Positions 30,180-61,864 of a stretch of DNA of 64,000 bases are shown here, one piece after another. The position numbers and the translations under genes are program-made. Every line of letters begins with the position of its first letter. Positions within the stretch are counted from its first letter, which is position 1. Source of the stretch: Terriglobia bacterium (lineage in GTDB: Bacteria; Acidobacteriota; Terriglobia; 20CM-2-55-15); contig CBDCLE010000023.1 in assembly GCA_965218585.1 (NCBI GenBank), positions 1 to 64,000 of the forward strand, in the 5' to 3' direction. The notes under the pieces were generated by a model, which did not search any database, had not been told where the DNA came from, and saw only the letters and a program-made list of their open reading frames with translations.

Positions 30180-30209
30180 TACCTCTGCCTTCCGACCCTT
30201 CCCCCCAAC

Positions 30210-30292: not shown

Positions 30293-30318
30293 TATTCTTG
30301 CGAGCCTAACTCAAGCCC

Positions 30319-32541: not shown

Positions 32542-32640
32542 AAGAATTTTCCTTCCGCAAAAGTGAAGAAACTCTGGGAATCGGAATAGCTAGAAAATAT
32601 ATCGTAGGTAGTTGAGGATTGGGCGAAATTCTGTCAAAAA

Positions 32641-33885: not shown

Positions 33886-33969
33886 CGCTGCACTCCTCCA
33901 GTTACGTTTGTCCCGAGCCTGGCACTGGCTATCCGGGGACGAGACGGCTAACATATTTCTCCGAACACC

Positions 33970-36900: not shown

Positions 36901-37173
36901 ACGGCTTTCGCCGTACCCAACTTTGGGAGTTTTGGCGACGCGGGAAGGAACATCCTCACCGGGCCCGATTTTCAGAACGTGAATCTGGCGCTTTCGAAAG
37001 AAGTGTCGCTAAACGAGGACGTCACTCTCGAGCTTCGCGCGGAAACGTTCAACCTCTTCAATCGAACAAACTTCAACCTGCCGGATGCCTTCGTCGGCTC
37101 ACCGACATTTGGTCAGATCGTATCGGCCCAGAGCCCGCGAAGGTGCCAGTTCGGCGTCAAGTTGATCTTCTGA
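33970..37173 (+). pseudogene. Oar-like TonB-dependent receptor with several frameshifts at ~34870-35650
   Basis: Carboxypeptidase-regulatory-like N-domain (G.VVDPSGASVPGA), [44 protein letters not shown], terminal aromatic F; middle part split across frames (could be sequencing error). Confidence 0.85.
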
Positions 37174-44830: not shown

Positions 44831-47464
44831 GTGAAAAGAACCATGACGACCAACTTCTATCGCATCTCGATCTCTCTGAGCATTTTGCTATTGCTCGGTG
44901 CGTCCAGCTTCGAAGCATTCGGCCAACAGAGGGTTCCAAGCCCAGAGGAATATCTAGGCTTCGAGGTCGGTGCAGACCGGAAGCTTGCCCGATGGGATCA
45001 GATCCTGGGTTATATCGGGCAGGTGGATGAGGCGTTTGACCGGGTGGGGATGGAGGTTGTCGGCGAAACGACCTCGGGCAATCCGTTCGTCGTCGTCGTG
45101 GTCTCCTCACCAGAGAACATGCGCCAGTTGGAGCGGTATGAAGACATCGCCGCGCAACTTGCCAGCGGAAGACTCGAAGCTGACGATGCACGGGACCTGG
45201 CCGCCAGCGGCAAGGTCATCGTCTTTCTCAACCATAATGTTCATTCCACGGAGATCGCGTCGTCCCAGACGACTTTGCGGCTTCTTCATTTCCTTTCTAC
45301 GGACACGTCAGAAGAAGTCCGGGAGATCCTGGATAAAGTGATTCTGGTCCACCTCCCGTCCGGAAACCCGGACGGTCAGATCATGGCTGTCGACTGGTAC
45401 AGGCAGAACGTGGGTACAGAGTACGAACAATCCCCGATGCCATGGCTCTACCATCCGTATATCGGCCACGACAACAATCGAGACTTCTTCATGGGCAACG
45501 TCGTGGAGTCGGCTCTGATGATGCAGCTCGTTTACAAGGACTGGCATCCGCAGATCTACCTGGATCAGCACCAGATGGGGGCCTTTGGAGCTCGCATGTT
45601 CGTTCCGCCGTTTCCCGACCCGCCGAACGAGCACGTTGATCCCTTGATCTGGCAGCAGATCAAGTTTCTCGGTGGGGGAATTGCAACCGACCTTCAGGTG
45701 GCTGGAAAGCAGGGCGTCCTGACCAACGCCATGTACCGGATCTACCACCAGGGAGGCCCGTTATCGGTCTGGTGGCACAACATCGTCGGCCTGCTCACTG
45801 AAACCGCAAGCGCGTCCATGGCGACACCGCTGACGCTTGATCGGGAAGACCTCAGACCCACACGACCCGACCAGGGGCTTCCTGTCTACGAGACGGCCAA
45901 GAATTTTCCGGATCCGTGGTACGGGGGGGAATGGCATCTCAGTGACATTGTCGACCATCAGTTCATTGCTGCAATGTCCGTACTCAAACAGGCAGCGCGC
46001 TACAAGAGTGAGTTCCTGTTCAACAATTATCTGATGGCCCAGAGGGCAATAGAGGCGGCCGAGGTCGAAGGCCCGTTTGCCTACGTTGTTCCGGCCGGAC
46101 AAAAGGACGGGCCCACGGCAGACGAAATGATCGAGAGATTGATGTTGCAGGGCATCGAAGTTCATCGGGCGGATAGCAACGTTCAGGTCGGGGGAGAAAC
46201 GTATCTCGAAGGTTCTTTCTTCTTATTGGCGGCTCAACCGGCTCGGTCTGCCCTGGTCGATCTTTTCGAAAGTCAGGACTATCCGGATGTCCGTCTGTAT
46301 CCGGAAGGACCACCAATCTTGCCGTATGACGTCACCGGCTACACTCTTCCCATGCAGATGGGAGTCACGTATGCGGCGATCGAGGCCGGATTCGATGTTT
46401 CTAATCTGAGATTGATCAGCAGCGTCGAAAACGACACCGTGGCTCCGGTTCCGGCAGCCACAGAGACTTTCGTCCTGAATCATGAGATCAACAAGACGGC
46501 CGTTCTGGTCAACCGGCTTCTCGCCAGGGACGTTCCGGTCTACCGCGTGCCTCAGGCAATAGATTTCAACGGTACGCCCATTTCCTCAGGTGCCTTCGCG
46601 GTTCCCGCATCAGCCCAGGTCCGAACTACACTCATGGATTTGAACGCCGATCTTTCGCTGCCGATCGGGGCCGATCCCAGCGACTTCGATGTCAACGATT
46701 CCGGATTGCCACTCAACGAGCCACGAGTAGGCCTTTACAGGTCGTGGGTCCCTTCGATCGACGAGGGTTGGACCCGGTGGATTCTTGAAGAGTTCGATTT
46801 TGCTTACGTTGGATTGCAGAACGAGGCGGTCCGCAACGGAAATCTCAGGGATGACTATGACGTGATTATCCTGCCGGCTCAACTCTCACTCCGGCAACTG
46901 GTGGAGGGCCGTCGGCCTGGAGAGATACCCGAACCTTACGTCGGCGGGATAGGCGAGGAAGGAATAGAAAACCTCAAACGATTCGTAGTGGACGGTGGAA
47001 CCTTGATCGCCCTTGACTCGGGAGGTGAGGTTGTCCTGGAACATTTTGACGTTCCTCTGACCGATGCGCTCGACGACGTATCGACAGATCAGTTCTATTG
47101 TCCCGGTTGTATCGTCCGGCTGGGGATCGACACGGACCACCCGATCGGGTTCGGCCTCGAACCCGAAGTTGCCGCGAAGTTTGCCAACAGTCCTGGATAC
47201 GTCGTTGATACCGAATCGAGCAATGACGTCCGCGTTCTGGCCAGCTACCCGTCAGACGGTCCGTTGTTGATGAGCGGCCTGATCATCGGGGAGGAAGTCC
47301 TGCAGGATAAAGCAGCGGTCGTTCAAATAGGATACGGCAGCGGATCAATCATCATGCTCGGCTTTCGGGTCCAGCACCGTGGCCAGACACACGGGACCTA
47401 TAAGCTCCTTTTCAACTCCATATACGACGGCGGCAGCAGTAGCCTTGCTCTGGAGTCCGATTGA
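44831..47464 (+). CDS. Secreted M14 zinc carboxypeptidase family protein with C-terminal GAT-like domain
   Basis: PEEYLGF.VG, HNVHSTE (HxxE), NPDG, HDNNRD, DQHQM, YDVTG.TLP, DEGWTRW. Confidence 0.87.
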   Translation: MKRTMTTNFYRISISLSILLLLGASSFEAFGQQRVPSPEEYLGFEVGADRKLARWDQILGYIGQVDEAFDRVGMEVVGETTSGNPFVVVVVSSPENMRQLERYEDIAAQLASGRLEADDARDLAASGKVIVFLNHNVHSTEIASSQTTLRLLHFLSTDTSEEVREILDKVILVHLPSGNPDGQIMAVDWYRQNVGTEYEQSPMPWLYHPYIGHDNNRDFFMGNVVESALMMQLVYKDWHPQIYLDQHQMGAFGARMFVPPFPDPPNEHVDPLIWQQIKFLGGGIATDLQVAGKQGVLTNAMYRIYHQGGPLSVWWHNIVGLLTETASASMATPLTLDREDLRPTRPDQGLPVYETAKNFPDPWYGGEWHLSDIVDHQFIAAMSVLKQAARYKSEFLFNNYLMAQRAIEAAEVEGPFAYVVPAGQKDGPTADEMIERLMLQGIEVHRADSNVQVGGETYLEGSFFLLAAQPARSALVDLFESQDYPDVRLYPEGPPILPYDVTGYTLPMQMGVTYAAIEAGFDVSNLRLISSVENDTVAPVPAATETFVLNHEINKTAVLVNRLLARDVPVYRVPQAIDFNGTPISSGAFAVPASAQVRTTLMDLNADLSLPIGADPSDFDVNDSGLPLNEPRVGLYRSWVPSIDEGWTRWILEEFDFAYVGLQNEAVRNGNLRDDYDVIILPAQLSLRQLVEGRRPGEIPEPYVGGIGEEGIENLKRFVVDGGTLIALDSGGEVVLEHFDVPLTDALDDVSTDQFYCPGCIVRLGIDTDHPIGFGLEPEVAAKFANSPGYVVDTESSNDVRVLASYPSDGPLLMSGLIIGEEVLQDKAAVVQIGYGSGSIIMLGFRVQHRGQTHGTYKLLFNSIYDGGSSSLALESD

Positions 47465-47619
47465 CAGGTCGCCGTTAGAAGAGCACGATACGCGACCGGT
47501 GTCAGCATTAACGATCAGAAACCACTCCCAGTGCCGGTCACCTGACGACCACAACTGCGGGTTCGATAACATCCCCGACGCCATCTCGGTGGTGCGAAGT
47601 TCGTTATACTATTTCGGCT

Positions 47620-48735
47620 ATGGAAGTTGCTGGTCCCACAAACAGGGAGGCCTCCCCAGCCCAGGTAGAAGCAGCTCGCAATGCGCTCGATGACTGGGTC
47701 CGTGAAGTCGTTGACTGGCACTTTGATCCGGCAACCGGGTCTCCATTCTGGCTTGAGCGCGCGAAGGAACTCGGCTGGGACCCCCGCCGGGAAATCCTGA
47801 GCTTCAGCGATCTCGGCCGCTTCGGGCCGTTCGAAGACGAGTGGTTGCGCGGCGGTCCCGTCGAGCGATGGGTACCCAGTGGTCTCGCGGATAAGGCCGT
47901 ATTCGTATTCGAAACAGGCGGTACCACAGGCATTCCGAAGACACGCATCAACTGCGAAGACTTCAGGACGGACTACGAGGTGTTCAGCGACACGCTTCCC
48001 GAAGAGTATTTCCCGAAGGGAGCAAACTGGCTCATGGTCGGACCTTCCGGTCCCCGTCGGCTGCGCCTGGCTGTAGAACACCTTGCCCAGTACCGCGGCG
48101 GCATCTGCTTCCTGGTGGATCTGGATCCCCGCTGGGTCATCAAGCTCATCAAGAAAGGATGGACCGAACACCTGGAGGCCTACAAGAACCACGTGATCGA
48201 TCAGGCTGTAACGATCCTCCAGGCCAACCACGACATTCACTGCCTGTTTGCAACGCCGAAACTACTTGAAGCCCTGGCCTTGCGCCTGGAATCGATGGAC
48301 ACGACGATTCACAAGGAAGGCATCACAGGTGTGTTCTCCGGAGGCACCGAGTTCACACCCCAGTGGAATCGTTTTGCGCACGAAGAATTGCTCGACGGAG
48401 CATACATGACCCCGACATACGGCAACACCTTGATGGGCCTTGCCCCAAGTGCTCCCAGCGGTCCAGCGAACGCCTACAAGATCTCTTACTACGCACCACA
48501 ACCGCGCGGAGTCATTGAAGTCATCGATCCCGATGATCCGGACCGTGTCGTCGGATACGGCGAAACCGGCCGAATCAAGGTCACCACCCTGACAAAGGAA
48601 TTCTTCATGCCGGGCTTCCTCGAACGCGATGAAGGTGAACGGGAACCGCCGTCGGATCTCTACCCATGGGATGGAGTGAGCGGTGTGCGGCCTTTCGGTA
48701 AACTGCCTACGGCGACCACCGTAGGCGTGTACTAG
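47620..48735 (+). CDS. EhpF-like adenylate-forming enzyme (PaaK/LuxE-like superfamily)
   Basis: WHF.PATGSPFW, FETGGTTGIPK, GPSGP, DLDPRWV, FSGGTE, YGNT, ERD and terminal GVY match the EhpF motif order as I recall it. Confidence 0.8.
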   Translation: MEVAGPTNREASPAQVEAARNALDDWVREVVDWHFDPATGSPFWLERAKELGWDPRREILSFSDLGRFGPFEDEWLRGGPVERWVPSGLADKAVFVFETGGTTGIPKTRINCEDFRTDYEVFSDTLPEEYFPKGANWLMVGPSGPRRLRLAVEHLAQYRGGICFLVDLDPRWVIKLIKKGWTEHLEAYKNHVIDQAVTILQANHDIHCLFATPKLLEALALRLESMDTTIHKEGITGVFSGGTEFTPQWNRFAHEELLDGAYMTPTYGNTLMGLAPSAPSGPANAYKISYYAPQPRGVIEVIDPDDPDRVVGYGETGRIKVTTLTKEFFMPGFLERDEGEREPPSDLYPWDGVSGVRPFGKLPTATTVGVY

Positions 48736-48743
48736 TTTATAAA

Positions 48744-50174
48744 ATGATTACCCTTCCCGTCCTGCGCTGGGGTCAACCCTACGACAGCCTCGATATAGAC
48801 GAAGTCGTCCATTTCTCGACGGGTGAGCCGGTCGCAAGGATCGGGCGCGCCAACAGCGGACTGATCCAGCGGGACATGCGCCGCGCCCAACGGGCCCGGG
48901 ACGCCCTCAGGACCATCCCGGTCGGCGAACTGCTCGAAAGGTTCCAGCGTGCGGGCGAGATTTACATGACCGGCACGGTTCCAATGGGTGACGGAGGGCA
49001 GACCCCTGAACAGTTTGTGACAGCCCAGTCGGCCAGCACCGGTCTGCCCGAAAACATGTGCCGGGCAAACATGGACAAGAACCGTTTCGTCCTGAACGAA
49101 ATGGGAAACATCCTCGCTTCGTTGACACGGGGATTAGACCTGGAGATCCTGAACCGGGGTTTCGGCGAGGAGCATGAGGTCCCGATAAGCTATCAGGCTC
49201 AGAGTCCGGTCCTCGGCGTCGTACTGCCGTCTAATTCTCCCGGTGTACACACCCTGTGGCTGCCGATGCTCGCGTTGCAGATCGGCCTCGTCCTCAAGCC
49301 CGGACCGCAGGAACCCTGGACGCCATACCGAATGGCCAACGCTTTCTTCGAAGCGGGCATTCCAAGGGAAGCGATTTCAGTGTATCCGGGCGAAGCCGAC
49401 GTCGGTGCGGCCGTACTCGCAGCCTGCCCCCGCAGCATGATCTTTGGTGATGAGACGACCGTGGACCGTTATCGGGGTGATCCGCGGGTCCAACCGCACG
49501 GACCGGGCTTCTCGAAGATTATCTTCGGTGACGACCAGGTGGACGATTGGGAAAAACACCTGGACCTGATGGTGGAAAGTGTTGCTGTCAACAGCGGACG
49601 TAGCTGTATCAATACCTCGGGGATATGGGTGAGTCGACACGCCGGAGAAATCGCCAATGCCCTGGCCAGAAGACTCGCCGAGATACAACCCCTTCCGCCC
49701 CAGGATCCGGAGGCCGGATTGGCGGCGTTCACGGTGCCCGGCGTAGCCGAAGCCATTTCGCAATCGATCGATGTCGATGTCCAGGCACCCGGGGTTCGGG
49801 ACGTCTCTTCCGAGTATCGTGAAGGGAGTCGCGTCGTAGACGCCGGACTCGCCGACTATCTGCTGCCAACCGTGATCCACTCCGAGTCACCGGACACCAG
49901 CATTGCGAGAAAGGAATACATGTTCCCTTTTGTCAGCGTCGTCGAGTGTTCCGAAGCTGACATGATTCGGGCCATCGGACCCACGTTGGTTTGCAGCGCG
50001 ATCACCTGTAACGAAGATTTCCGCAGACAACTCGTGGATGCGGTAAACATCGACCGGCTGAACCTCGGCCCGGTGCCGACGACCAAGCTCAACTGGCTGC
50101 AACCCCACGAAGGGAACATCGTCGATTTCCTATTTCGCGCACGGGCATTCCAGAACGCGCCGTTCACGGGTTGA
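48744..50174 (+). CDS. ALDH-fold protein, EhpG/LuxC-like acyl reductase
   Basis: LPSNSP (oxyanion Asn), LKPG..EP, NSGRSCIN (catalytic Cys), EYMFP; HGPGFSK replaces ELGG. Confidence 0.8.
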   Translation: MITLPVLRWGQPYDSLDIDEVVHFSTGEPVARIGRANSGLIQRDMRRAQRARDALRTIPVGELLERFQRAGEIYMTGTVPMGDGGQTPEQFVTAQSASTGLPENMCRANMDKNRFVLNEMGNILASLTRGLDLEILNRGFGEEHEVPISYQAQSPVLGVVLPSNSPGVHTLWLPMLALQIGLVLKPGPQEPWTPYRMANAFFEAGIPREAISVYPGEADVGAAVLAACPRSMIFGDETTVDRYRGDPRVQPHGPGFSKIIFGDDQVDDWEKHLDLMVESVAVNSGRSCINTSGIWVSRHAGEIANALARRLAEIQPLPPQDPEAGLAAFTVPGVAEAISQSIDVDVQAPGVRDVSSEYREGSRVVDAGLADYLLPTVIHSESPDTSIARKEYMFPFVSVVECSEADMIRAIGPTLVCSAITCNEDFRRQLVDAVNIDRLNLGPVPTTKLNWLQPHEGNIVDFLFRARAFQNAPFTG

Positions 50175-50197
50175 CGTGAGTCCTAATTTGCACGACG

Positions 50198-50276
50198 GAA
50201 GATTTCGCTCCCTCGTTCATTCAGACATCCTGTCTGAACGAGGGGCGACCCTCTCCATCATCCTGATGGAGAGGCC
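50198..50276 (-). repeat. Double-hairpin AGGAT-loop repeat, copy D
   Basis: Minus strand GGCCTCTCCATC-AGGAT-GATGGAGAGGGTCGCCCCTCGTTCAGAC-AGGAT-GTCTGAATGAACGAGGGAGCGAAATCTTC. Confidence 0.88.
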
Positions 50277-50316
50277 TATCGGGATCGAGGGAACATTAAC
50301 TTAAGGCCTAGAGCCC

Positions 50317-51648
50317 ATGAAGGTCTTGTCGATCACAGCCGGCGCGGCGGGAATGTACTGCGGGAGTTGTGCCCGCGATAACGCTCTGGCGCGAGAACTC
50401 TTGTCCCTCGGGCACGACTGCACTCTCATACCCGTCTACACGCCCACACGGACAGACGAACCGAACGCAAGCCGCAACCGAGTCCTGTTCGGCGGCATCA
50501 GCGTCTATCTTCAGCAGTATGCCCCTCTCTTCCGTAAGACCCCACGACTTCTGGACCGGATGTGGGATTCGCCATGGGTGATCAACCGCTTCAGAGGACG
50601 TGCGGTGTCGAACGACCCGCAGTTATTGGGAGACCTCACGATCTCCATGCTCGAAGGCGAACAGGGCGTCTTAAGTAAGGAATTCGACAAACTTGTGGAT
50701 TGGATCAGCCACCAGCCCAGACCCGATATCATCAACCTGCCCAACTCGCTGTTGATCGCGCTCGCGGCACCGCTGAAAGAAACGTTCGATTTACCTGTGT
50801 GCTGCACCTTGCAGGGAGAAGAGCTCTTCATCGACGGATTGCTGGCGCCCTACCGCGACGAGGCTCTGCGGCTGATCCGAGGGCAGGTCTCCACTGTGGA
50901 TCGTTTTATCGCCGTCAGCGAATACTGTCAGCGCTTCATGACAGAGTATCTCCAGATACCTCTCGAGCGTATTGGCGTTGTGCCTCTGGGTATCAACCTG
51001 ACCGGTTATCCTGACAGCCCGGTCTCCACAGACGATGACGGCGAATTCCGTGTGGGATATTTCGCCCGCATTGCGCCGGAAAAAGGTCTGGACGCGTTGG
51101 CCGACGCCTATGTCCGGTTCCGCAAACGGAGCGGGAGTGCTTTGGTGCGATTGTGTGTCGCGGGCTACACGGCTCCGGCTCACGCTGATTACTTGAACCA
51201 GGTCCGCAACATGCTGACCGAAGCCGGTTATGGTGATGAGTTCTCCTATCAAGGCGTTGTGGACCGGGAGGGAAAGCTGCGGTTTCTCCAGGAACTCGAT
51301 ATCCTTTCGGTGCCGGCAACCTACGATGAACCGAAGGGCATGTTCCTGCTCGAAGCCATGGCGAATGGCGTTCCAGTCGTTCAACCCCGTCGCGGCGCCT
51401 TTACTGAGATCGTCGAAAAAACCGGCGGCGGCCTGTTGGTTGAACCCGACAGTGCGGAAAGTCTGGCTGAAGGCCTGTACCAGCTATGGAAGGATCGTCA
51501 ACAGAGGTCCGAATTGGGAAAGTCCGGCCTGGAGGGCGTGCATGAACACTATTCGGTCCGACACTCCGCGGACCGGTTGCTGGAAATTTACGATGATGTT
51601 CTGAACGCACGGTCTGAGGGAACTATCCCGGTCGGTGCCAGCGTTTGA
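50317..51648 (+). CDS. Glycosyltransferase family 4 (GT-B) with an N-terminal CxxC motif
   Basis: FIAVSEY, VPLGIN, RIAPEKG, EPKGMFLLEAMANGVPVV; N-terminus GMYCGSCARDN. Confidence 0.88.
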   Translation: MKVLSITAGAAGMYCGSCARDNALARELLSLGHDCTLIPVYTPTRTDEPNASRNRVLFGGISVYLQQYAPLFRKTPRLLDRMWDSPWVINRFRGRAVSNDPQLLGDLTISMLEGEQGVLSKEFDKLVDWISHQPRPDIINLPNSLLIALAAPLKETFDLPVCCTLQGEELFIDGLLAPYRDEALRLIRGQVSTVDRFIAVSEYCQRFMTEYLQIPLERIGVVPLGINLTGYPDSPVSTDDDGEFRVGYFARIAPEKGLDALADAYVRFRKRSGSALVRLCVAGYTAPAHADYLNQVRNMLTEAGYGDEFSYQGVVDREGKLRFLQELDILSVPATYDEPKGMFLLEAMANGVPVVQPRRGAFTEIVEKTGGGLLVEPDSAESLAEGLYQLWKDRQQRSELGKSGLEGVHEHYSVRHSADRLLEIYDDVLNARSEGTIPVGASV

Positions 51649-52358
51649 GTGCAGAGGACTCATTGCTCGAAGTCTCACATCTCAGCAAGGAATACCCGAC
51701 GCCCCGAGGACCACTCGAAGTCCTGTCGGACGTCAACCTGTCGCTCGCTCCGGGGGAGGCTGCGGCGATCATGGGTCCGTCCGGCAGCGGGAAGAGCTCG
51801 CTGCTTTACGTCCTGGGAGGTCTGGAGCCACCATCGTCTGGAAGCGTAAAGCTCGAGGGAAACGACCTGTTTGGAATGAAGCCTTCCCAGCAGGCCAGGT
51901 TCCGGAACACGCAGATCGGCTTCATCTTCCAGGATCACTGTCTGCTCCCCCAATGTTCGGTCCTGGAAAACGTGCTCCTGCCAACGCTGGTAAGGCATGG
52001 GAACGACATAAACGAAGATAGGGAACGGAAGAATTTCGCCGAAGACGCGCGCTTGCTCGTCGAACAGGTGGGACTTGGCGATCGTATCGACCACCGGCCG
52101 GCGGAGTTATCGGGAGGGGAAAGACAGCGAGTGGCCATCGCCCGCGCATTGATTCGCAGCCCCCGTCTCATTCTGTGCGATGAACCCACCGGGAACCTGG
52201 ACGAAACGACTGCGGACACCGTCGCATCGCTTTTGCTGGAACTCCATCGTGTTCAGAAAAACATCCTGATCGCCGTCACACACAGCGCACATCTCGCGGC
52301 ACGGTTTCCGATTCGTTTTGAGCTTGCACAGCGGCGACTCGGTCGGGTTGAATCATAG
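51645..52358 (+). CDS. ABC transporter ATP-binding protein (LolD/MacB type)
   Basis: [40 protein letters not shown]. Confidence 0.95.
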
Positions 52359-52373
52359 ATGACGAGTTAAACA

Positions 52374-55300
52374 ATGGCTGATGGCATAAAACAACGTCGT
52401 CTCATCTTCGAGGGTTTGGCGTTTTATTGGCGCACAAACATCGCCGTGATCGCCGGCGTTGCAACCGCGGTCGCCGTTCTTGCGGGAGCCTTGCTGGTGG
52501 GCGACTCCGTACGCGGCAGTCTCCGCGACATGGTCCTCGAGCGAATCGGAAACACAGACCATATCGTCGTGTCGACGACTTTCTTTCGAGAGGCCCTGGC
52601 CCGGGATCTGGGCAATCATCCCGACTTCCCTGCCAGTTTCAACGGTGTGGCTCCGATCATTGTCACCGAGGGACTCGTGACCACTCCAACGGGCGAGGGG
52701 CGAATGGACCGGGTTCGTGTGTACGGTATCGACGACCGGTTCTGGCGGTTCCACGGTGTGGAGGAGTTCACCGGTCCCGGAGGCCGTCAGGCATTAGTCA
52801 GCCCTGCCCTGGCCGAGGGACTCGGTGTTGAGGCAGGAGCCACCATTCTTGTCCGCGTCGAACGACCCTCTGAGATCCCACTGGAGTCCCTCCACGGAAA
52901 CAAGGCCGACCTGGGCCGTACGATTCGCGCCACACTCGGAAGTGTTGTCCCTGGCGAAACGCTCGGCGAATTCTCTCTCGAAGCGGGCCAGGGGGAGGTT
53001 CACGCAGTCTTTCTTCCTCTGGAGCTTGTCACCGAGGACCTCGAAATAGAAGAACGCGTCAACGCGTTGCTCGTTTCGACCACTTTGGCAGATGCCGATG
53101 CCGCAACGGCGGAATTGGAAAGGATGGTTCGGAGCGAAGCCGAATTGGAAGATCTGGGTCTCGGTCTGAGACTCTTGGGACAACCCCAGGCGCTCGCAAT
53201 TGAAGGCTCTGGCGGTTTGATCGACGATCAAAAGGTTGATATCGCACTGGAGGCCGGGGCAGCCATGGGCCTGGAAGCACGCCCAATTTTCACCTATCTG
53301 GTCAACAGGCTCGGCAACGCTTCAACTGAAATCCCTTATTCGCTTGTAACCGCAACCGACCTCACCCGCTTAGTCGGAGAAGAACTGTCTTCTGTGTCAG
53401 GTCTGCCGCCAATCGTCCTCACTGACTGGGCCGCCGAGGATCTCAGCGTTTCAAGCGGAGATCGTCTCTCGATGGAATACTACGTCTGGGTGGAACCTGG
53501 TCAACTGGTCACTCGGGAAACCGACTTCGAAGTCGTGAACGTAGTTCCCATCGACGCCGGAGATCGCGACATGGCTCCGACCTACCCGGGCATTACGGAT
53601 TCGGAAGCTCTGGCTGACTGGAATCCGCCGTTTCCGATCGATCTCGCACGTATCCGCCCTGTCGACGAAGAGTTCTGGAATCTTTATCGGACGACACCCA
53701 AGGCGTTTATCCCGCTCGAAGTCGGCCGCGAGCTCTGGCAGTCCCGTTACGGATCCATTTCGTCTATTCGTCTGGCTCCGGAAACGGAGACAGAAGAACT
53801 AGCGGGGGAGACTCTTGTCGCCAATTACGCCGAACGTCTTGGAACACTTCTCGACCCGCTCGGTTTTGGCCTGGCCGTTCGGTCGGTGCGTTCCGAAGGT
53901 CTCGAGGCCTCGCGCGGCGCGACGAACTTTGGCGAGTACTTTGTGTACTTCAGTTTCTTCCTGGTTGTCTCGGCCCTGATGTTGGCGGCGTTGTTCTTCA
54001 AGTTGAGTGTCGAGCAACGTGGCCGTGAGATTGGGTTGCTGCGGTCGGTTGGCTTTACTCCGCCAATGGTCCGACGCCTATTTCTCATTGAAGGATTGAT
54101 CCTGTCTTCAATCGGTGCCCTCATCGGTGTGTGGGGCGGGATCGGGTACGCCTCGCTCCTGGTCACCGGCCTCGGCACATGGTGGGTCGATGCCGTTGGA
54201 ACCACCGCTGTAACGCTTCATGTTTCGGGCTTATCTCTGGCAGCAGGCGTAGTGGGTGGAATCGCAGCGGCCATGGCATGCATCTGGGTAACTCTCCGAA
54301 GCCTGTCATCGGTGTCCGAACGCCGGTTGCTGGCGGGGCAGCTTTCCCAGGAGAACGCTGGACAGAGGGGTCGAACTCGGCCAGCCCGGCTGGGGGCGGT
54401 GTCGCTGGGCAGCCTCGGCATCGCACTCATCGTCGGAGCGGGAATGGGTTTCGTCGATCAGGCGGCTGGCTTTTTTGGAGCGGGAATGGCGTTTCTGGCA
54501 GCCAGTCTTTGTTTTCTCGCACTTCGATTCGGCCGTCGGCGCGAAGCGGTGCTCGGAGGCCAGGGCTGGTGGCCGGTCTCGCGGCTGGGTCTCCGGAACG
54601 CGACCTATCGTCCCGCTCGAAGCGTCACTGCAATCGGAATGATCGCGGCGGCAACTTTCATTTTGATATCGGTCGATGCCTTCAGAAGGGACACGGTATC
54701 GAACGCGGGTCCCGAGTCCGGACTGGGGGGTTACCCCTTGCTCGTCGAGTCCCTTCTGCCTATGTTGGAAGATCCAACCAGCCCTGCAGGCCAGGAATTT
54801 CTGGGGTTGGGAAGCATCGACTCCGCAGCTGTATCTCCGTTCCGACTCAGACCGGGTGACGACGCCAGTTGCCTGAACCTGTACGCCCCCACAAATCCGA
54901 GGATCGCGGCACCCAGCGACGCGTTCATCGAACAGGGACGTTTTGCGTTTCAGGATTCGCTTGCGTCGAATGATGCAGAACGTGCCAACCCGTGGCTCCT
55001 CCTCCAACGGGATGGACCCGACGGAACAATTCCCGTGATCGGCGATGCAAACTCGATGACCTATGTCCTGCACCGGAAGCTGGGCGAGGAGATCCTCATA
55101 ACCGAAGGAGACCGCACAATTCGGCTGCGGCTCGTTGCGACTCTGGACGACAGTATTTTCCAGGGCGAGCTCCTGATGTCTGAAACTCATTTCCTGGAAC
55201 AGTTTCCTTCACAGGAAGGATATCGACTCCTGCTTGTGGAGACAGAAGCAGGAAGCGTGGCCCAGGCCGAAGAATCGATCGAAAACGCCCTGGCGGACTA

Positions 55301-55739
55301 TGGAGCGACGGCGACGCCGACTGCCGAGCGTCTCGCCCAGTTCCACCAGGTCGAGAACACCTACCTGTCGACGTTTCAGATGCTGGGTGGACTGGGCCTG
55401 CTGCTTGGAACCGTCGGCCTGGGCGCGGTCCTGTTGCGAAACGTTCTGGAACGACGGCGGGAACTGGCACTGATGCGTGCGCTCGGTTACCTCGAACGAG
55501 ACTTTCTCGCGATGTCGATGGCAGAGAACGTGATGTTGCTGACCGTGGGACTGGTGACCGGCGCGGCATGCGCCTTCCTGGCTACGCTTCCGGTTATCCT
55601 GGATCGTGGCGGGCAACTTCCCGGTATGCTTGTCTTCGGACTATTGGGTGGCGTTCTGGCGGTTGGACTGGTCACCTCCCTGGGGGCGACGATTGCCGTC
55701 CTCCAGTCACCTCTGTTGCCGGCTCTAAGAGAGGAGTGA
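52374..55739 (+). CDS. Duplicated FtsX/MacB-type ABC permease (1121 aa)
   Basis: Two FtsX-like TM bundles (EQRGREIGLLRSVGF; ERRRELALMRALG) with large periplasmic loops. Confidence 0.9.
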   Translation: MADGIKQRRLIFEGLAFYWRTNIAVIAGVATAVAVLAGALLVGDSVRGSLRDMVLERIGNTDHIVVSTTFFREALARDLGNHPDFPASFNGVAPIIVTEGLVTTPTGEGRMDRVRVYGIDDRFWRFHGVEEFTGPGGRQALVSPALAEGLGVEAGATILVRVERPSEIPLESLHGNKADLGRTIRATLGSVVPGETLGEFSLEAGQGEVHAVFLPLELVTEDLEIEERVNALLVSTTLADADAATAELERMVRSEAELEDLGLGLRLLGQPQALAIEGSGGLIDDQKVDIALEAGAAMGLEARPIFTYLVNRLGNASTEIPYSLVTATDLTRLVGEELSSVSGLPPIVLTDWAAEDLSVSSGDRLSMEYYVWVEPGQLVTRETDFEVVNVVPIDAGDRDMAPTYPGITDSEALADWNPPFPIDLARIRPVDEEFWNLYRTTPKAFIPLEVGRELWQSRYGSISSIRLAPETETEELAGETLVANYAERLGTLLDPLGFGLAVRSVRSEGLEASRGATNFGEYFVYFSFFLVVSALMLAALFFKLSVEQRGREIGLLRSVGFTPPMVRRLFLIEGLILSSIGALIGVWGGIGYASLLVTGLGTWWVDAVGTTAVTLHVSGLSLAAGVVGGIAAAMACIWVTLRSLSSVSERRLLAGQLSQENAGQRGRTRPARLGAVSLGSLGIALIVGAGMGFVDQAAGFFGAGMAFLAASLCFLALRFGRRREAVLGGQGWWPVSRLGLRNATYRPARSVTAIGMIAAATFILISVDAFRRDTVSNAGPESGLGGYPLLVESLLPMLEDPTSPAGQEFLGLGSIDSAAVSPFRLRPGDDASCLNLYAPTNPRIAAPSDAFIEQGRFAFQDSLASNDAERANPWLLLQRDGPDGTIPVIGDANSMTYVLHRKLGEEILITEGDRTIRLRLVATLDDSIFQGELLMSETHFLEQFPSQEGYRLLLVETEAGSVAQAEESIENALADYGATATPTAERLAQFHQVENTYLSTFQMLGGLGLLLGTVGLGAVLLRNVLERRRELALMRALGYLERDFLAMSMAENVMLLTVGLVTGAACAFLATLPVILDRGGQLPGMLVFGLLGGVLAVGLVTSLGATIAVLQSPLLPALREE

Positions 55740-56780
55740 CTCGAAGCTTGACATGACAAGAATCAAACGCACAACGAAGTGGATTTTCGTTCTCCTTTCA
55801 GGAATGACGCTGGTGGGTGGAGCCCTGTCGGTCACGACGACGTCCCAGGAGTTGGGAATCCCCTCCAGCGGACTCGGCGAAAGTTTGGGCGTTCGAATGG
55901 TTCCCGTCGAGGGCGAGGGTGCACAGTATTGGTCCCGTTGGCGGGGACCGTCGGGTCAAGGACAGGTGGAAGGGAGCGGCTATCCCGATACCTGGTCCGC
56001 GACCGAAAACGTCCTCTGGAAGACGCCCGTTCCCGGAAGCAGAAATTCGTCTCCCATCGTGTGGGATGACCTCATTTTCCTGACGACGTCCTACGACCGG
56101 GGGGACCGACTGTCCCTTCTGGCGTACCGGCGCTCTGATGGCGAGTTGCTCTGGGAGAGCTTCGCCCCGGACGGGGTATCGGAACGGCCCCATCAGAAGA
56201 ACGGCCATGCCTCCGCGACGCCGACGACCGATGGCGAACGCGTCTACGTCTCGTTTGGTGCCCGCGGGATGGCGGCATTTAGTTTGGACGGTGAACTGCT
56301 CTGGAATCAGGATGTGGGGCGGATCAACAACTATCACGGCACGGCCGGTTCACCTCTGGTTTATAAGGACCGCATCATCATCTTTCAGGATCACTCCGCA
56401 GGTTCGTTCGTGGCTGCTTTCGATACGCGAACAGGCCAGGAGTTGTGGCGAACACCCCGCCAGGCGAGTGTTGGCTGGGGCTCACCGATCGCGGTTCAGG
56501 TGGACGACCACGACGAGATCATCGTCCACAGCCAGAGACGGGTGAATGCATACGATCCCGACACTGGAAGAGAGTTGTGGTACTGCAACGGAAACACCTT
56601 CGAGGTGATTCCCACACCTGTCGTCGGCTACGGAATGCTGTTCTGCTCCTCGGGCCGCGCGGGTCCGACGATGGCTATAAAGCCCGGTGGTACGGGCAAC
56701 GTCACCGACAGCCACCTGGTGTGGTCGAGTCCCAGAGGATCTCCATTCGTTCCGTCTCCGATTCTCTATGGCGACCAACT

Positions 56781-58640
56781 CTTGTCCAACGTCAATCAGA
56801 ATTCCTTCTCGCATTGACTCATTGAAAATGTTACCGAACTGAGGGTTGTTGCCTCATTAGAAATGTTACCCAACTCTATGAGAACGGAGGTGGGAAGTGA
56901 GGACACACATGACTGTTGCGGCAAGGCGAGAATTAGCTCTACGAACGGCGGTTCGCTACAAGAATGCGGCGCGACCGGAGAAGAAGCGAATCCTGGATGA
57001 GTTCCTTGAATCGACCGGGTTCCATCGGAAGCACGCGACACGGCTTCTGAACGACATTCTGAGGGGCGAACGGCCCCGACGGCAACCGCGCGGCCGGGTC
57101 CGTCGATACGGCCCCGCGGTGCAGGCCGCCCTGATCGCGGCCTGGCGCACAGTCAATGATGTCTGTGGCAAACGGCTCGTTCCGTTTCTGCCGGAGCTGA
57201 TCCCGACCATGGAGCGTCACGGGCATCTGTTATTGTCTGATAAAACGCGGGCGGATCTGCTTGAGCTGAGCGCCGCCACGGCTGATCGGATCTTCCGTCA
57301 ATTCCGATTCGATCATCGACCGCACGGCAAGACCACCACCAAGTCCGGACAGTTACTCAAACACCGCGTTCCGATTCGCACATTCGCCGACTGGGCGGAC
57401 ACGCGGCCGGGATTCATGGAAGCGGACTTGGTTGCACACTGCGGCGGGAACTCGGAAGGCCCTTTCCTCCACACCCTGGTACTGACCGACGTGGCGACCG
57501 GCTGGACCGAATGTCTGGCGTTGCTACGGCGTACGGAGGCGGACATTCTGCAGGCGCTCACGACGGCACGGCAGATCCTTCCGTTTCAGCTTGTCGGCCT
57601 GGACACGGATAACGGTTCCGAGTTCATGAACTACGGACTCCTCGCCTACTGCGAGCGTGAAACGATTCAATTCACCCGAGGCCGGGCGCGCCGGAAGAAC
57701 GACCAGTGCTTCGTCGAACAGAAGAACGGCTCGATCGTCCGCCAATTGGTCGGCTACGACCGCTACGAAGGCTCACTGGCATACAGGCAGCTTGCCGAGC
57801 TCTACCGAGTGGTCCGGCTCTACGTGAACTTCTTCCAGCCGTCCATGAAGCTCACGACGAAGACTCGCGATGGATCCCGGGTGACGAAACGCTACGATAT
57901 CGCGCAAACACCCTATCAACGGCTCTCGAATTCGGATGCGCTCGACCCGGAGGTTCGCGTTCGCCTTGCTGCGATTTATGAACGTTCGGATCCGGTCGAT
58001 CTCCTACGACAGCTTGAGAAACTCCAGGATGCATTCTGGAGACATGCGAAGGAACTGGCCTCTCCCACGCTAACGGACGACATCGTGCGCGCCGCCCTTG
58101 TGTCCCCGAACTGCGACGCAGATGCAGACCGAGCCCCGATTGAGGCGGAACTCCCCGATCCCGGCTTCGAGCAACGAATCACGCGTCGGTATCGCAAAAC
58201 ACGGAAACAACCTGTGCCCCACATCTGGCGTACTCGCCCGGACCCGTTCGACGGCGTCTGGGAGGAGATGCGGTCATGGCTTGAATCCGATCCCGGGCGA
58301 ACATCAAAGTCGCTGTTGCTTGAGCTTCAGCAGCGGCGCCCGGGACGTTACCCCAACGGTCAGTTACGGACCCTGCAGCGGCGCGTGCGCGAATGGCGGC
58401 GTCAGATTCTGGAGACTTTCGATGGCGAGTGGCTCGAACTGGATCGGGTCCGCCCGGCTTCAGCATCTGCGGGCGACGGGGGCTGTGGAAAAGGCGGTCG
58501 CCCCACAGCCTCGACGGCGGGAAGAACTCTCCCGTTTGACCGGTCGTTCGGTAACATTTTCGATGAGGCAACAACCCTCAGTTCGGTAACATTTTTAAAT
58601 GAGGCAATACGGCCGGGAGTTTTGATTGTCGCTGATCAAG
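56781..58640 (+). mobile_element. 1860-bp IS (ISNCY-like DDE element) with terminal and subterminal inverted repeats; probable 2-bp CT duplication
   Basis: Terminal IR CTTGTCCAACGTCAATCAGAATTCC vs CTTGATCAGCGACAATCAAAACTCC (19/25); ~63-bp subterminal IR begins exactly 32 nt inside both ends; host reading frame rejoins across it. Confidence 0.9.
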
Positions 58641-58738
58641 CTCTACATCGTCAACGACATGGCGAGCATCGCGACGTCCTTCGATGCCAGAACCGGAGAC
58701 AGTCTGTGGCAGGGACGGCTGGGAGTTGTAAGGCGTGA
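56897..58738 (+). CDS. DDE (integrase-core) transposase
   Basis: EADLVAHCG, TDVATGW, DTDNGSEF, KNDQCFVEQKN; C-terminal WRTRPDPF...LRTLQRRV; ORF reads through the right end. Confidence 0.9.
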   Translation: MRTHMTVAARRELALRTAVRYKNAARPEKKRILDEFLESTGFHRKHATRLLNDILRGERPRRQPRGRVRRYGPAVQAALIAAWRTVNDVCGKRLVPFLPELIPTMERHGHLLLSDKTRADLLELSAATADRIFRQFRFDHRPHGKTTTKSGQLLKHRVPIRTFADWADTRPGFMEADLVAHCGGNSEGPFLHTLVLTDVATGWTECLALLRRTEADILQALTTARQILPFQLVGLDTDNGSEFMNYGLLAYCERETIQFTRGRARRKNDQCFVEQKNGSIVRQLVGYDRYEGSLAYRQLAELYRVVRLYVNFFQPSMKLTTKTRDGSRVTKRYDIAQTPYQRLSNSDALDPEVRVRLAAIYERSDPVDLLRQLEKLQDAFWRHAKELASPTLTDDIVRAALVSPNCDADADRAPIEAELPDPGFEQRITRRYRKTRKQPVPHIWRTRPDPFDGVWEEMRSWLESDPGRTSKSLLLELQQRRPGRYPNGQLRTLQRRVREWRRQILETFDGEWLELDRVRPASASAGDGGCGKGGRPTASTAGRTLPFDRSFGNIFDEATTLSSVTFLNEAIRPGVLIVADQALHRQRHGEHRDVLRCQNRRQSVAGTAGSCKA

Positions 58739-59026
58739 GGGTTTTTCCGCATCACCAGTTGCCGTGGATGGCAAAGTCTTCTTCACCAACGACAACGGTG
58801 AAACCTTTGTACTCCGGGCCGGCAGAGAATTCGAGCTGTTGCATGTGAACGATATCGGGGAACGCACGCTGGCTTCACTGGCGCTCGTCGATGGCCGATG
58901 GTATATCCGGACCGGACAGAATCTGATTTCGATCGGCGAGTGAGGTAATCGATCCGCTGGTTTAATGTTTGTCATAGCAGTTTGACAAGCGTAAACTTTG
59001 TGAGTTGAGTTGAGGGAGGACAGTCA

Positions 59027-59656
59027 GTGGTTCAGTCAGAGTCAGTTGTTCCAACCGCACAAGGGGAGGCGACCCGGAGCCGGATACTCGATGCAGCAGC
59101 GCAGGCCTTTTCAGAACGCGGTTTCAGCGGTGCCACTTTGCGTGATATCGGAGCGGCTGCGGGTGTTCCATTTCAGTCGATCCGTCACCACTTTGGGTCC
59201 AAGGAAGATCTCTAGGAAGCGGTCGTTGAGGAATTGAGCCGACACAGCCAGGAAGGCGCACTCCGTAATGAGGAGGTCATCGCATCACTTCCGCCCCGTG
59301 AACAACTCCGTGCGCAGATCTTCGCGCTTGTTGCCCGTGTAGCGGAACACCCCCAACTGTCCCGGATGCTCTTGCGCGAGGCGATGAAGGACAGTGACCG
59401 CTATCGAAAGGCCTACGAATTGCATGTCCGCGACCTTACAGTATTAGCGGGCAGGTTCTTCGGGCGCATGCAAGAGGCCGGTGTCGTCAAGGAAATTCCC
59501 ATTGAGGATTTCCTGTTCGTCTGGGAGGGTGCCCTACTCCACCGTTTGGTGGCTCCCGCTGCCAACCAGCTTCGCACCGGAAAACCCATCACGGACCGCG
59601 GTGTCATCGAACGCCATGCAAATGCGGTGACACAGTTACTCCTGAAGGACGGGTAA
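59027..59656 (+). pseudogene. TetR-family regulator with an in-frame TAG at 59213-59215
   Basis: RILDAAAQAFSERGF.GATLRDI...HFGSKEDL*EAVV; the TAG sits where TGG (Trp) would be expected and the frame continues to 59656. Confidence 0.85.
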
Positions 59657-59676
59657 CAGGACCATCCTGAGGCCAG

Positions 59677-60078
59677 GTGAAACATCTGACACACGGCGTC
59701 GCCGTCCTGGTCTCTCTGATGTTCGTGTTCATCGGCAGTGTGAAACTCTTCGGGGTACCCCAGTCGATGTTCGAATTCCAGCTCGAAAACTACTTCAATG
59801 CGTACGGCCTGACCCGAGGGCATATGTTTGCCGTAGGGCTGGCCGAACTGTTTGGAGCCGTCGCGATCTGGTGGCACCGCACACGGTGGATCGGGCTTGC
59901 GGGACCCGCCGTTCTTGTCGTCGTGACCCTCGGGGCCACTTATTACCATCTCCAGTTCGACACGGTTCGAGAAGCACGCCCCGCGATAATGATGCTGACC
60001 TTGTCTTCGTTCGTTCTGTTGATGTCGTGGTATCTCCACTTTCGCCCTTCAAATGTGTTGGAGAGAAGCCCGGAGTAA
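59677..60078 (+). CDS. DoxX-like membrane protein
   Basis: Four hydrophobic segments; F...G..KL, VGLAELFGA, GA.YYH. Confidence 0.8.
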   Translation: MKHLTHGVAVLVSLMFVFIGSVKLFGVPQSMFEFQLENYFNAYGLTRGHMFAVGLAELFGAVAIWWHRTRWIGLAGPAVLVVVTLGATYYHLQFDTVREARPAIMMLTLSSFVLLMSWYLHFRPSNVLERSPE

Positions 60079-60233
60079 GGCCAGCCGGGCAATCCGCCAC
60101 CTCGAACGGGCGTTTTTCCCCCCAATACCCCTCCCCTATTGTTAGACTCACCGGAATCTCAACCTCTACTGTAGGTGCGCTCTATGAGCGCACAGTCAAA
60201 AGGACGAAGAGAAGTTCAACAGAAGGAGGCCGC

Positions 60234-61782
60234 ATGCATATCCGGCATCTCTATTTCGCGATTCTAGTCGTTGTCGTTGCGCTCGGTAGCGCATGCAGTT
60301 CTCCGCCTCTTATCATCGAAGGGTTGACGTTGGACCCAAGACCGAGTGAGTCGGTTCCCCTGGCCGCACAGGTGACCTTTGAAACAAACCGGCCGACAAC
60401 GGTGGCACTGCTGTTCGACGATGGTGATCGAACCTGGACCTCCGACTTGGGGCTCTCAAGCCAGACACGCCATGTCGTTCCGGTCCTGGGCATGCGTCCG
60501 GGTCGGACACATCAAGTTCGTGTGGTCGTTACCGATCAGGACGGACTCACGGCAACGTCCGAACTGCTGGCGATCACGACCGATCCTCTCCCCGAACTCT
60601 TTCCTCCGATAGACGTTCGCATCAGCGAGCCGGAACGAATGGAGCCGGGTGTGACTGTTTTCAGCCTTTCCTACAGGCCCGAAGGGGGAGGCGGTGGAAA
60701 CGTGGGCCTCGCCGTCGCGGTGGACGAGGCCGGAGAAGTAGTCTGGTACTACACCACCGACCATGGCGTTCGGGATATCCGGCAGCTCGACAACGGCCAT
60801 ATCCAGTATCTCTCCCGAAATCCCGGTGAGCCCTTATACGAAATCGAGTTTTCACCACGAAGCCTTCCGGACAGCAACGGGAAACATCCTGACCTCCAGT
60901 GCGGATCTGAGAACCTATGACAACTACCCGACCAGCGATTCGGACCCCAATGCACCTCGAGGTGCCGCCGAATTGATCGGGGACACTCTGATCGAATTCA
61001 CTCCCGAGGGAGAAATCGTTCGTGAAGTGAAACTACTGGACCTGGTCGATCCCTACCGTTTTGGATATGGATCGATCGGAGGGGGAGCAGCCCTGGGAAA
61101 CGTCTTCGGTCCTCGGGGTGAGAATCCCCGTCACGACTGGGCCCATCTCAACGCCGTCATTCCAGACGACACCGGACGCTACGCGATTGCATCCCTCAGG
61201 CACCAGGACGCTGTAGTGAAGGTCGACATGGAGACAGGTGAACTGGTTTGGATTCTGGGCAACCACGACGGATGGGGACCCCGATGGCAGGATCTTCTAT
61301 TAGAGCCCCAGGGCGACCTCCTCTGGAACTACCATCAGCATGCGTCCACGATCACGCCAAGCGGAACACTCCTCATGTTCGACAACGGCAATTTCCGCGC
61401 GTCACCGTACGAGGAACCGATGACGCCGGCAGAGTCCTTCAGCCGAGCGGTTGAATACCGCATCGACGAAGAGAGCATGCAGGTGACGGAAGTGTGGTCC
61501 TCTGGAGATGATGGAGACGAACGCTTCTTCGCTAACTTCCAGGGTGACGCCGACTGGATGCCACAGACGGGCAACGTTCTTATTACGTATGGAGGACTGG
61601 TCTCAGACGCTGACGGGATCTCTGTGGAAGGCCAAGCCGGTCACAGTTGGGCTCGAATCGCGGAGGTGACCCATGATACTCCTGCGGAAAAAGTGTTCGA
61701 GTTTTTCATAGACGATCAGCGCCCTGAAGGCTGGTCTGTTTATCGCGCTGAACGACTTCCCAGCCTCTATCCCTCAAGATAG
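60234..61782 (+). pseudogene. Second aryl-sulfate sulfotransferase paralog with an internal deletion/frameshift near 60848
   Basis: Collinear with 9958..11571 (both end AERLPSLYP); about 30 codons between LYEI and HHE are missing and the frame shifts. Confidence 0.85.
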
Positions 61783-61864
61783 ATTCCACGGTTGAAAATA
61801 GTTCGAGGAACTGAAGGAAGGGCGCTGCCGCGGGCCCAAACCAACGGCAGCGATGATTCGAATA

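Follow-up and report, generated by a model that had tools for sequence, protein, structure and literature searches.

EhpF and its partner EhpG, which resembles aldehyde dehydrogenases (ALDHs), are proposed to reduce a phenazine carboxylate in phenazine clusters, and to our knowledge all studied members of the two families come from phenazine antibiotic clusters. The LuxE/LuxC fatty-acid reductase of luminescence is composed of an adenylating protein of approximately 370 amino acids and an ALDH-like reductase of approximately 480 amino acids, which carries the acyl group on a cysteine. Reduction of an acid to an aldehyde with ATP and NADPH, via an acyl-adenylate and a thioester, is also catalysed by the NRPS-like carboxylic acid reductase (CAR), in which one polypeptide combines a phosphopantetheine carrier domain with a reductase of the SDR type. 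An EhpF/EhpG-like pair of genes was analysed in a 64,000-nucleotide stretch from a Terriglobia bacterium (positions 1–64,000 of contig CBDCLE010000023.1, assembly GCA_965218585.1; hereafter the window), where it heads a row of six genes, g1 to g6 (Table 1). The pair probably forms a two-protein carboxylate reductase, as judged from its sequence. Our reading of the whole locus, which we put forward tentatively, is that this ATP- and NAD(P)H-dependent reductase feeds an envelope module made up of a GT4 glycosyltransferase, an ATP-binding cassette (ABC) machine of type VII and a β-propeller.

Literature searches returned no described function for this gene arrangement, in agreement with a first-pass annotation that had been made from the sequence alone, and a search on YbbP returned only work on YbbAP–TesA.

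A putative two-protein carboxylate reductase

The product of g1 is a full-length homologue of the EhpF of solved structure (PDB 3hgu and 3l2k), in line with the first-pass annotation, which had seen the EhpF motif order in it. The phmmer match (E = 2e-40) pairs residues 18–359 of the query with residues 15–353 of the chain, and the next-best PDB match has an E value of 0.1. The P-loop is present and the ANL C-terminal domain is absent; Pfam AMP-binding covers residues 202–319 only, at 20.9 bits, below its cut-off of 29.9. In an alignment of 41 family members (31–85% identity), the P-loop GGTTGxPK is nearly invariant, the ERD motif (R336–D337) is conserved, and no invariant Cys is present that could act as an acyl carrier as in LuxE. 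A C-terminal G-[V/L/A/M]-Y, which is GVY in g1, occurs in 41 of the 41 members and in six proteins beyond these, which come from Pantoea, Burkholderia, Streptomyces and two haloarchaea. The invariance of this tail at the extreme C terminus suggests a docking or active-site role. Neither Pfam nor NCBIfam holds a dedicated EhpF or EhpG model, and even Pantoea EhpF itself is unmatched there. A protein-atlas search with one g1 homologue (P0009) returned only clusters named ‘putative AMP-binding enzyme’, from Acidobacteriota and Planctomycetota.

The second gene encodes an ALDH-fold protein (Pfam Aldedh, 66 bits) in which, on alignment with a solved ALDH, PSNSP stands for PWNFP, GRSC for GEVC and PHGPG for LEAGG. 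Among 26 relatives of g2, N164, C288, the H252-G-P-G stretch and the NAD-site Glu391 are invariant, upholding the earlier description of an ALDH fold that keeps its Cys and Asn and carries HGPG for ELGG; the position of His252 is occupied by Tyr, Arg or Gln in more distant partners. The match of g2 to the ALDH encoded after EhpF on a Pantoea plasmid (26% identity, E = 2e-32) is stronger than that to the best solved ALDH (E = 5.9e-12). With its fold, its catalytic Cys and Asn, the absence of a general-base Glu and its position right after an EhpF-like gene, g2 belongs to the EhpG-like proteins.

EhpF/EhpG of the D-alanylgriseoluteic acid cluster of Pantoea (Erwinia) agglomerans represent the same two families in the same order and with the same tight linkage, and they too lack the ANL C-terminal domain and the general-base Glu and have the GVY tail. 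They differ from the pair described here in that g1 is only 30% identical to its counterpart, in that Gln in Pantoea takes the place of His in g2, and in their neighbours, which here are a symporter (upstream, in relatives), a GT4, a type VII ABC system and a propeller, with no phz genes. The clade of g1 is separate as well: in a tree of g1 with 38 rows, of which the Halomarina row was disregarded, the window protein and that of Kolteria fall within a clade of eight (support 100/99), apart from the Pantoea and Burkholderia rows. The logic of LuxE/LuxC is the same as that proposed for g1–g2, but hmmscan at E ≤ 10 lists only AMP-binding and Aldedh for the two proteins, with no match to Pfam LuxE or LuxC (which we take to be PF04443 and PF05893). 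Compared with CAR, the reaction would here be divided between two proteins, with no carrier domain and with an ALDH-fold reductase.

No Phz family was detected in the window with Pfam, and tblastn searches with the PhzA/B, D, E, F and G proteins of Pantoea (E ≤ 1e-5) gave no match in any of 81 sources, comprising the window and the 80 related loci described below; with Pantoea EhpF and EhpG the same search matched 81 and 76 of the 81, respectively. The first-pass annotation had called the pair an orphan and had seen no phz core genes in the window, and on both points it was right: the pair is genuine and lies outside any phenazine cluster. Plasmid relatives of g1 at 30–39% identity, from Pantoea, Burkholderia and some Streptomyces, do lie in phz-type clusters, and some relatives bear the PGAP name arylcarboxylate reductase. 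In PMC3175449, EhpF–O are described as converting PDC to AGA.

Domain fusions offer a further indication of the product. The EhpF-like domain is preceded by an N-terminal class-III aminotransferase in eight Streptomyces clusters, is joined to a Zn-alcohol dehydrogenase in one protein, and is combined with g2 and a C-terminal Fe-alcohol dehydrogenase in another. Six further proteins join g1 to the ALDH, and in two others the EhpF-like domain is fused to propeller repeats; each of these forms a cluster of one member on one contig and could be an artefact of assembly. In a Pirellulales locus, g1 and g2 head a row that continues with genes for an Fe-alcohol dehydrogenase, a propeller and a HemN-like radical SAM protein. 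These arrangements would fit an aldehyde product that is later aminated or reduced.

The EhpF/EhpG-like pair is not rare. Searches with g1 and g2 each gave at least 8,000 scored candidates, and the best 120 clusters, which carry generic names only, are 77–95% identical to g1 and 73–95% identical to g2. The diversity of the g1 family is nevertheless small: of the 1.84 billion representatives in a set clustered at 50% identity, 1,509 match at E ≤ 1e-3 and 295 at E ≤ 1e-30, many of them fragments.

Conservation of the operon

The best 80 loci of at least 537 confirmed g1 relatives, found in a scan at one genome per species, were compared over 10 kb on each side of the g1 relative. By name, 73 of them are of Acidobacteriota type (mostly Vicinamibacterales) and three are planctomycetes, including the cultured Kolteria novifilia Pan216 (L067); the other four bear the unconfirmed labels Bifidobacteriaceae (three) and Acidimicrobiia (one). 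All locus counts come from tblastn searches that used the proteins of the window as queries, and a locus entered the count for a gene only if its sequence extended far enough to reveal that gene. Families of neighbouring genes were assigned from open reading frames (ORFs) whose frames were chosen by codon-position GC, a choice that is imperfect in GC-rich DNA with its long antisense ORFs. The g1 homologues have a median identity of 77.6% to the window protein.

On the strand of g1, g2 follows in 73 of 74 loci; the loci that contain the other genes number 58 of 65 for the GT4, 57 of 64 for the ATPase, 50 of 62 for the permease and 38 of 61 for the propeller. In the 62 loci whose downstream sequence reaches 7.5 kb or more, the gene orders are g1-g2-g3-g4-g5-g6 (29 loci), g1-g2-g3-g4-g5 (9), g6-g1-g2-g3-g4-g5 (7), g1-g2 only (6), g1-g2-g3-g4 (4), g3-g1-g2-g4-g5 (4) and others (3). 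In the g3-g1-g2-g4-g5 loci the GT4 has moved upstream of g1, with the ABC genes still downstream. The first-pass annotation had made its reading depend on gene order being conserved in other genomes, and the order g1-g2-GT4-ATPase-permease is indeed conserved in most loci. We infer the link of the GT4 and of the YbbAP-like/propeller genes to the pair from this adjacency, which has survived one rearrangement. From g1 to g6, the related proteins become less similar to those of the window (median identities of 78%, 72%, 63%, 63%, 52% and 34%). A propeller gene lies directly after the permease (gap below 700 nucleotides) in about two dozen loci, and in four loci the GT4 and ATPase are present and the permease was not found. 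In L020, L021 and L061 the ATPase is followed, in the permease’s place, by a protein of approximately 820 amino acids with fused membrane and spermidine-synthase-like domains.

Two neighbours were discarded as members of the system: the HemN-like radical SAM gene after the propeller, present in seven loci only, and the M14 peptidase-like gene upstream of g1 in the window, which has no counterpart in any locus.

Table 1 Features of the g1–g6 locus in the window
Feature	Position	Strand	Description
g1	47620–48735	+	Putative adenylating enzyme of the EhpF family, 371 aa; only the N-terminal domain of ANL enzymes
g2	48744–50174	+	EhpG-like ALDH-fold protein, putative reductase, 476 aa; Cys288, Asn164, His252 at the general-base Glu site
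Hairpins in g2–g3 gap	50211–50244, 50249–50274		Two perfect palindromic hairpins
g3	50317–51648	+	GT4 (GT-B) glycosyltransferase, 443 aa; Pfam Glycos_transf_1 86 bits, Glyco_transf_4 54.5 bits, both above cut-off
g4	51645–52358	+	ABC ATPase of LolD/YbbA/MacB type, 237 aa; TTG start, 4-nt overlap with g3; Pfam ABC_tran
g5	52374–55739	+	Fused double-FtsX permease, 1,121 aa; two Pfam FtsX stretches
g6, N-terminal part	55753–56817	+	BamB/PQQ_2-type β-propeller, hydrophobic N terminus; Pfam PQQ_2; propeller-derived coding to ~56782
Insertion sequence, ISNCY type	~56783–~58640	+	~1.8 kb; transposase ORF, inverted repeats; ends read by eye against the L073 orthologue
g6, C-terminal part	58626–58943	+	105 codons in another frame; weak PQQ_2 match

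The six ORFs run head to tail with intergenic distances, from g1 to g6, of 8, 142, −4, 15 and 13 nucleotides. Folding as RNA is much stronger for the hairpins in the 142-nucleotide gap than for shuffled sequence (z = −3.7). The first hairpin occurs only once in the window, and the second, which recurs at 18668–18694, behaves like a dispersed REP-like (repetitive extragenic palindrome) repeat, so that the earlier description of a gap filled by a repeat holds for it. A scan of the gap found no T-run terminator after the hairpins.

Glycosyltransferase and ABC module

Both Pfam domains and a conserved EPKG..LEA..G.PVV stretch, presumably the EX7E region, place g3 in family GT4. No NCBIfam equivalog reaches its cut-off, an N-terminal MYCGSCxRDN motif is common to 26 g3 orthologues, and among solved structures those of sucrose-phosphate-synthase-like, GlgM, MshA and PimA enzymes come closest, and they are silent on the acceptor.

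The ATPase g4 scores below the NCBIfam cut-offs for LolD (237 bits; cut-off 307.75) and YbbA (198.9 bits; cut-off 336). In a plain hydropathy scan, the peaks of the permease g5 fit an arrangement of 4+2+4 helices, with large periplasmic stretches at residues ~42–522 (~480 residues) and ~770–1002 (~230 residues). The profile of g5 matches YtrF and MacB chains weakly, no significant sequence match to a YbbP chain was returned, tblastn gave no match to g5 on plasmids, and NCBIfam lists weak DevA and DevC matches for g4 and g5. PMC5985334 describes YbbP as two MacB units with two linking helices. Likewise, g4–g5 comprise a separate ATPase and a permease with two FtsX units, two linking helices and, in each unit, a large periplasmic domain that separates the first helix from the second, the features of the YbbAP subtype of type VII systems, as judged from hydropathy.

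As in YbbAP–TesA of Escherichia coli, the ATPase is YbbA-like and separate, the permease looks like two MacB units and a gene for a periplasmic protein lies next door; g5 differs in its 1,121-residue length and much larger periplasmic domains, the neighbour is a β-propeller rather than a hydrolase, and a partnership between them would be suggested here by gene adjacency. MacAB–TolC and LolCDE have in common with g4–g5 the FtsX-type permease domains and the LolD/MacB-like ATPase. They differ in that g5 is fused and approximately three times the length of LolC/E, in NCBIfam scores that stay below cut-off and in the absence of a MacA or TolC gene from the operon; no MacA-type adaptor or TolC gene was found among the ORFs of 44831–63268.

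According to PMC5985334 and PMC12646458, MacB-type (type VII) ABC proteins carry no substrate across the inner membrane, and YbbAP is reported to extract hydrophobic compounds from the inner membrane and to hand them to its periplasmic partner TesA (PMC12646458). The first-pass annotation had described a MacB-type exporter that exports the product to the periplasm. Of this, the MacB-superfamily ATPase and FtsX permease stand, arranged as a separate ATPase and a YbbP-like fused double-FtsX permease; the exporter does not, since type VII systems act on the periplasmic side, which makes transport of the product into the periplasm, in the form proposed, unlikely. The ABC module is easier to reconcile with the removal of an amphiphilic product from the membrane, or with an envelope role of its own, than with export.

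A propeller gene interrupted by an insertion sequence

The propeller gene g6 is knocked out by an insertion sequence in this genome. The first-pass annotation had correctly recorded six co-oriented genes with their plus-strand ORFs and all five gaps, but it had taken 55753–58943 as one secreted propeller gene, missing the insertion; the g6 ORF stops at 56817 and the remainder lies in another frame. An intact 470-residue orthologue in L073 reads through the break, its residues 42–371 corresponding to the N-terminal part (78% identity) and residues 370–470 to the C-terminal part (88%). Between them, an ORF at 56897–58738 (613 codons) encodes an rve (DDE) domain and has plasmid relatives annotated as ISNCY-family transposases. 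It is the only ORF of the element. The inverted ends span 56814–56875 and 58546–58607; within them, inverted repeats of 53 nucleotides lie at 56822–56874 and 58546–58598, and the 15-mer GTTCGGTAACATTTT is present twice, in sub-terminal position, in each inverted end; no second copy of this end motif was found in the window. The target duplication is short, and the ends of the element are approximate.

In NCBIfam, g6 scores 42.8 bits against the BamB model TIGR03300 (cut-off 285.2) and 33.6 bits against the dehydrogenase model TIGR03075 for enzymes dependent on pyrroloquinoline quinone (PQQ; cut-off 480.05), which are approximately 550–600 residues long, compared with 470 for the intact orthologue; the ‘acido-empty-quinoprotein group A’ model matches weakly. 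With a profile of the g6 orthologues, BamB is the best natural match in the PDB (E = 1.4e-25), followed by PQQ alcohol dehydrogenases. No lipobox Cys was seen by eye in the g6 N terminus. At least four more BamB/PQQ_2-type propeller genes, three of them in tandem, are present in the window (13087–14334 and 28001–33954), and propeller paralogues in the related loci number 72 members in 40 loci.

Transporters upstream of the pair

Of the 75 loci in which 2.2 kb or more of sequence precedes g1, 43 have a divergent transporter gene within 1.5 kb, belonging to the MFS in 23 and to the SSF (sodium:solute symporter) family in 20; co-directional GH77 was found in 13, another gene in one and none of these in 18. 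The GH77 gene was set aside as a member of the system, as it looks like lineage-specific synteny. Beside the upstream SSF gene, a small DUF3311 membrane protein is encoded in L018 (9667–9963) and seven other loci. On haloarchaeal plasmids (Halalkalicoccus jeotgali and Halomarina sp.), SSF, EhpF-like and ALDH-like genes stand in a row on one strand. Because two unrelated symporter families occupy the same position, and because the same trio occurs in another domain of life, the acid would come from outside; we regard its import, which the first-pass annotation had missed, as an evenly balanced proposition on these genomic grounds.

PDB searches with the SSF and MFS neighbours gave only weak matches, to glucose transporters and SV2, and nothing on the substrate. 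An Rfam scan of the window and four loci returned no match, hence no riboswitch that would point to the ligand. The (hetero)aromatic acid named in the first-pass annotation could not be upheld as substrate, as it goes back only to distant relatives and to a weak MFS match to the aromatic-acid symporter family (89.7 bits; cut-off 418.55). The substrate may be an aromatic, hydroxy, sugar or fatty acid.

Proposed pathway and alternatives

We infer the direction of the reductase, the acyl transfer from g1 to g2, the import of the substrate, the glycosylation of the product and the partnership of ABC machine and propeller as follows. The acid would be taken up by the SSF or MFS symporter that is encoded divergently upstream in most relatives, although not in the window, and g1, an ANL protein without the C-terminal domain, would activate it as an acyl-AMP. 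The acyl group would then move to Cys288 of g2 as a thioester, which g2 would be unable to hydrolyse because its general-base Glu is replaced by His, and NAD(P)H would reduce the thioester to the aldehyde. In the Vicinamibacteria-type Acidobacteriota, the aldehyde, or an alcohol derived from it, would be glycosylated or built into a glycoconjugate by the cytoplasmic GT4. The YbbAP-like ABC machine would handle the GT4 product at the periplasmic face of the inner membrane and give it to the BamB-like propeller, a step that would parallel the presentation of membrane-extracted compounds to TesA by YbbAP. That a glycosylated product is handled by the ABC/propeller module is, from the gene arrangement, the more doubtful part of the scheme.

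Several observations weigh against this pathway. The propellers that follow the permease are of two very different sequence types, 25–40% and 55–88% identical to g6, and these genomes hold many propellers of this kind. Among the loci that extend far enough downstream, seven have the pair but neither GT4 nor ABC genes (L045 and L067, which are planctomycetes, and L023, L027, L060, L072 and L080), so the pair can work alone. The conserved order may partly reflect inherited synteny rather than functional coupling, because the loci are the best 80 of at least 537 relatives and 73 of them have Acidobacteriota-type names. Eighteen of the 75 loci, and the window itself, have no upstream symporter, and a further 13 have GH77 in its place. 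Where symporters are present, those of the SSF family score with the PutP, PanF and MctP models and those of the MFS with the aromatic-acid and sialate symporter models, all far below cut-off. Acyl transfer or binding between the proteins is proposed from homology and gene adjacency, the GT4 sequence gives no clue to the acceptor, and a product made in the cytoplasm would need a further route across the membrane.

Some of these points also fit a different, though unlikely, explanation, in which two unrelated modules share one operon: g1–g2 and the symporter would assimilate an environmental acid or turn it into an aldehyde or alcohol, and the GT4, type VII ABC system and propeller would form a separate envelope module for glycoconjugates or for the extraction of hydrophobic compounds, never touching the reductase product. 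The pair without GT4/ABC genes in 7 of 65 loci, planctomycetes included, and the haloarchaeal genes with a symporter only are as such an explanation would have it. So are the lower conservation of the module genes (medians of 63%, 63% and 52%, against 78% and 72% for the pair) and the four loci with GT4 and ATPase in which no permease was found, three of them with the fused spermidine-synthase-like membrane protein next. Against a division into two modules, the GT4 still adjoins the pair after rearrangement (GT4-g1-g2-ATPase-permease, four loci), the gaps within the window operon are short and the g2–g3 gap yielded no terminator. A lipid substrate, by comparison with LuxE/LuxC and with the export of heterocyst glycolipids by DevBCA, appears improbable: g1–g2 would reduce a fatty or hydroxy-fatty acid as far as the aldehyde or alcohol, the product of the GT4 would be a glycolipid or an alkyl glycoside, and its extraction from the inner membrane for the outer envelope would fall to the type VII ABC system. 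The weak DevA/DevC matches of ATPase and permease, the lipid glycosyltransferase PimA among the PDB matches of the GT4 and the handling of membrane-embedded hydrophobic molecules by type VII ABC systems (PMC12646458) agree with this. Pfam LuxE and LuxC are, however, unmatched even at the permissive threshold given above, the operon contains no acyl carrier or fatty-acid genes, the symporter adjoining the pair is of families for soluble acids, and all characterized or annotated relatives stand in aromatic-acid or phenazine contexts.

Those contexts lend themselves to the proposal of the first-pass annotation, which we consider quite improbable as a whole, that the cluster makes a glycosylated (hetero)aromatic compound, either a secondary metabolite or a cofactor, for export and for use by the many PQQ-like propellers. 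It draws on the phenazine or aromatic clusters of the Pantoea, Burkholderia and Streptomyces relatives, on the arylcarboxylate reductase name, on the aromatic-acid symporter family as best NCBIfam match of the MFS neighbour, on the weak ‘empty quinoprotein’ match of g6 and on the propeller as a recurrent neighbour, present even in the Pirellulales locus without GT4/ABC. But no genes for an aromatic scaffold occur in the window or within 10 kb in the 80 loci, MacB-type systems do not export across the inner membrane (PMC5985334), g6 is far below the BamB and PQQ-dehydrogenase cut-offs with BamB as its best natural match, and the propeller is disrupted here with the other five genes intact. Very improbable, in our estimate, is a salvage-and-loading pathway in which an imported acid is reduced and glycosylated and the product is presented by the YbbAP-like mechanotransmission machine to a BamB-like ‘empty quinoprotein’ propeller as a periplasmic ligand or prosthetic group.

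Other features of the window

Downstream of the operon, a TetR-family regulator gene (59027–59656) contains a single in-frame TAG at 59213–59215 and is either a pseudogene or affected by a sequencing error. An arylsulfotransferase gene (59871–61782) is split into two overlapping ORFs that correspond to residues 10–204 and 233–537 of an intact paralogue (9958–11571). Further apparently broken genes lie among 33970–37173, 39806–40498 and 28001–30218: an outer-membrane barrel that resembles TonB receptors, is present as two pieces and lacks its middle, a 230-residue fragment of a gamma-glutamyltranspeptidase, and a propeller present as two overlapping ORFs. The many broken genes suggest either frequent indel errors in the assembly or gene decay under way. 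Genes for coenzyme F420 are located at 5909–8016 and 14378–16816 (CofC-like, F420 gamma-glutamyl ligase, F420-dependent NADP oxidoreductase and two CofG/H-like radical SAM proteins) and adjoin a methylmalonyl-CoA mutase/propionyl-CoA carboxylase/MeaB cluster at 17021–26945. On the minus strand, 61865–63268 encodes a 467-residue protein made up almost entirely of ankyrin repeats.

Implications

The pair belongs to a distinct clade that is very abundant in public metagenomes, and in soil bacteria of the Vicinamibacteria type it forms part of a conserved operon. Were the salvage-and-loading pathway true, it would explain why PQQ-less Acidobacteria and Planctomycetes keep many propellers. The YbbAP-like machine with a propeller as partner would be a second type VII ABC system that feeds a periplasmic protein. 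Should g1–g2 be a carboxylate reductase of two proteins that acts generally, with an imported acid as substrate, the pair would offer biocatalysis a compact alternative to the large CAR enzymes. It would also give a dominant group of soil bacteria, and haloarchaea, an ATP-dependent route from acid to aldehyde.

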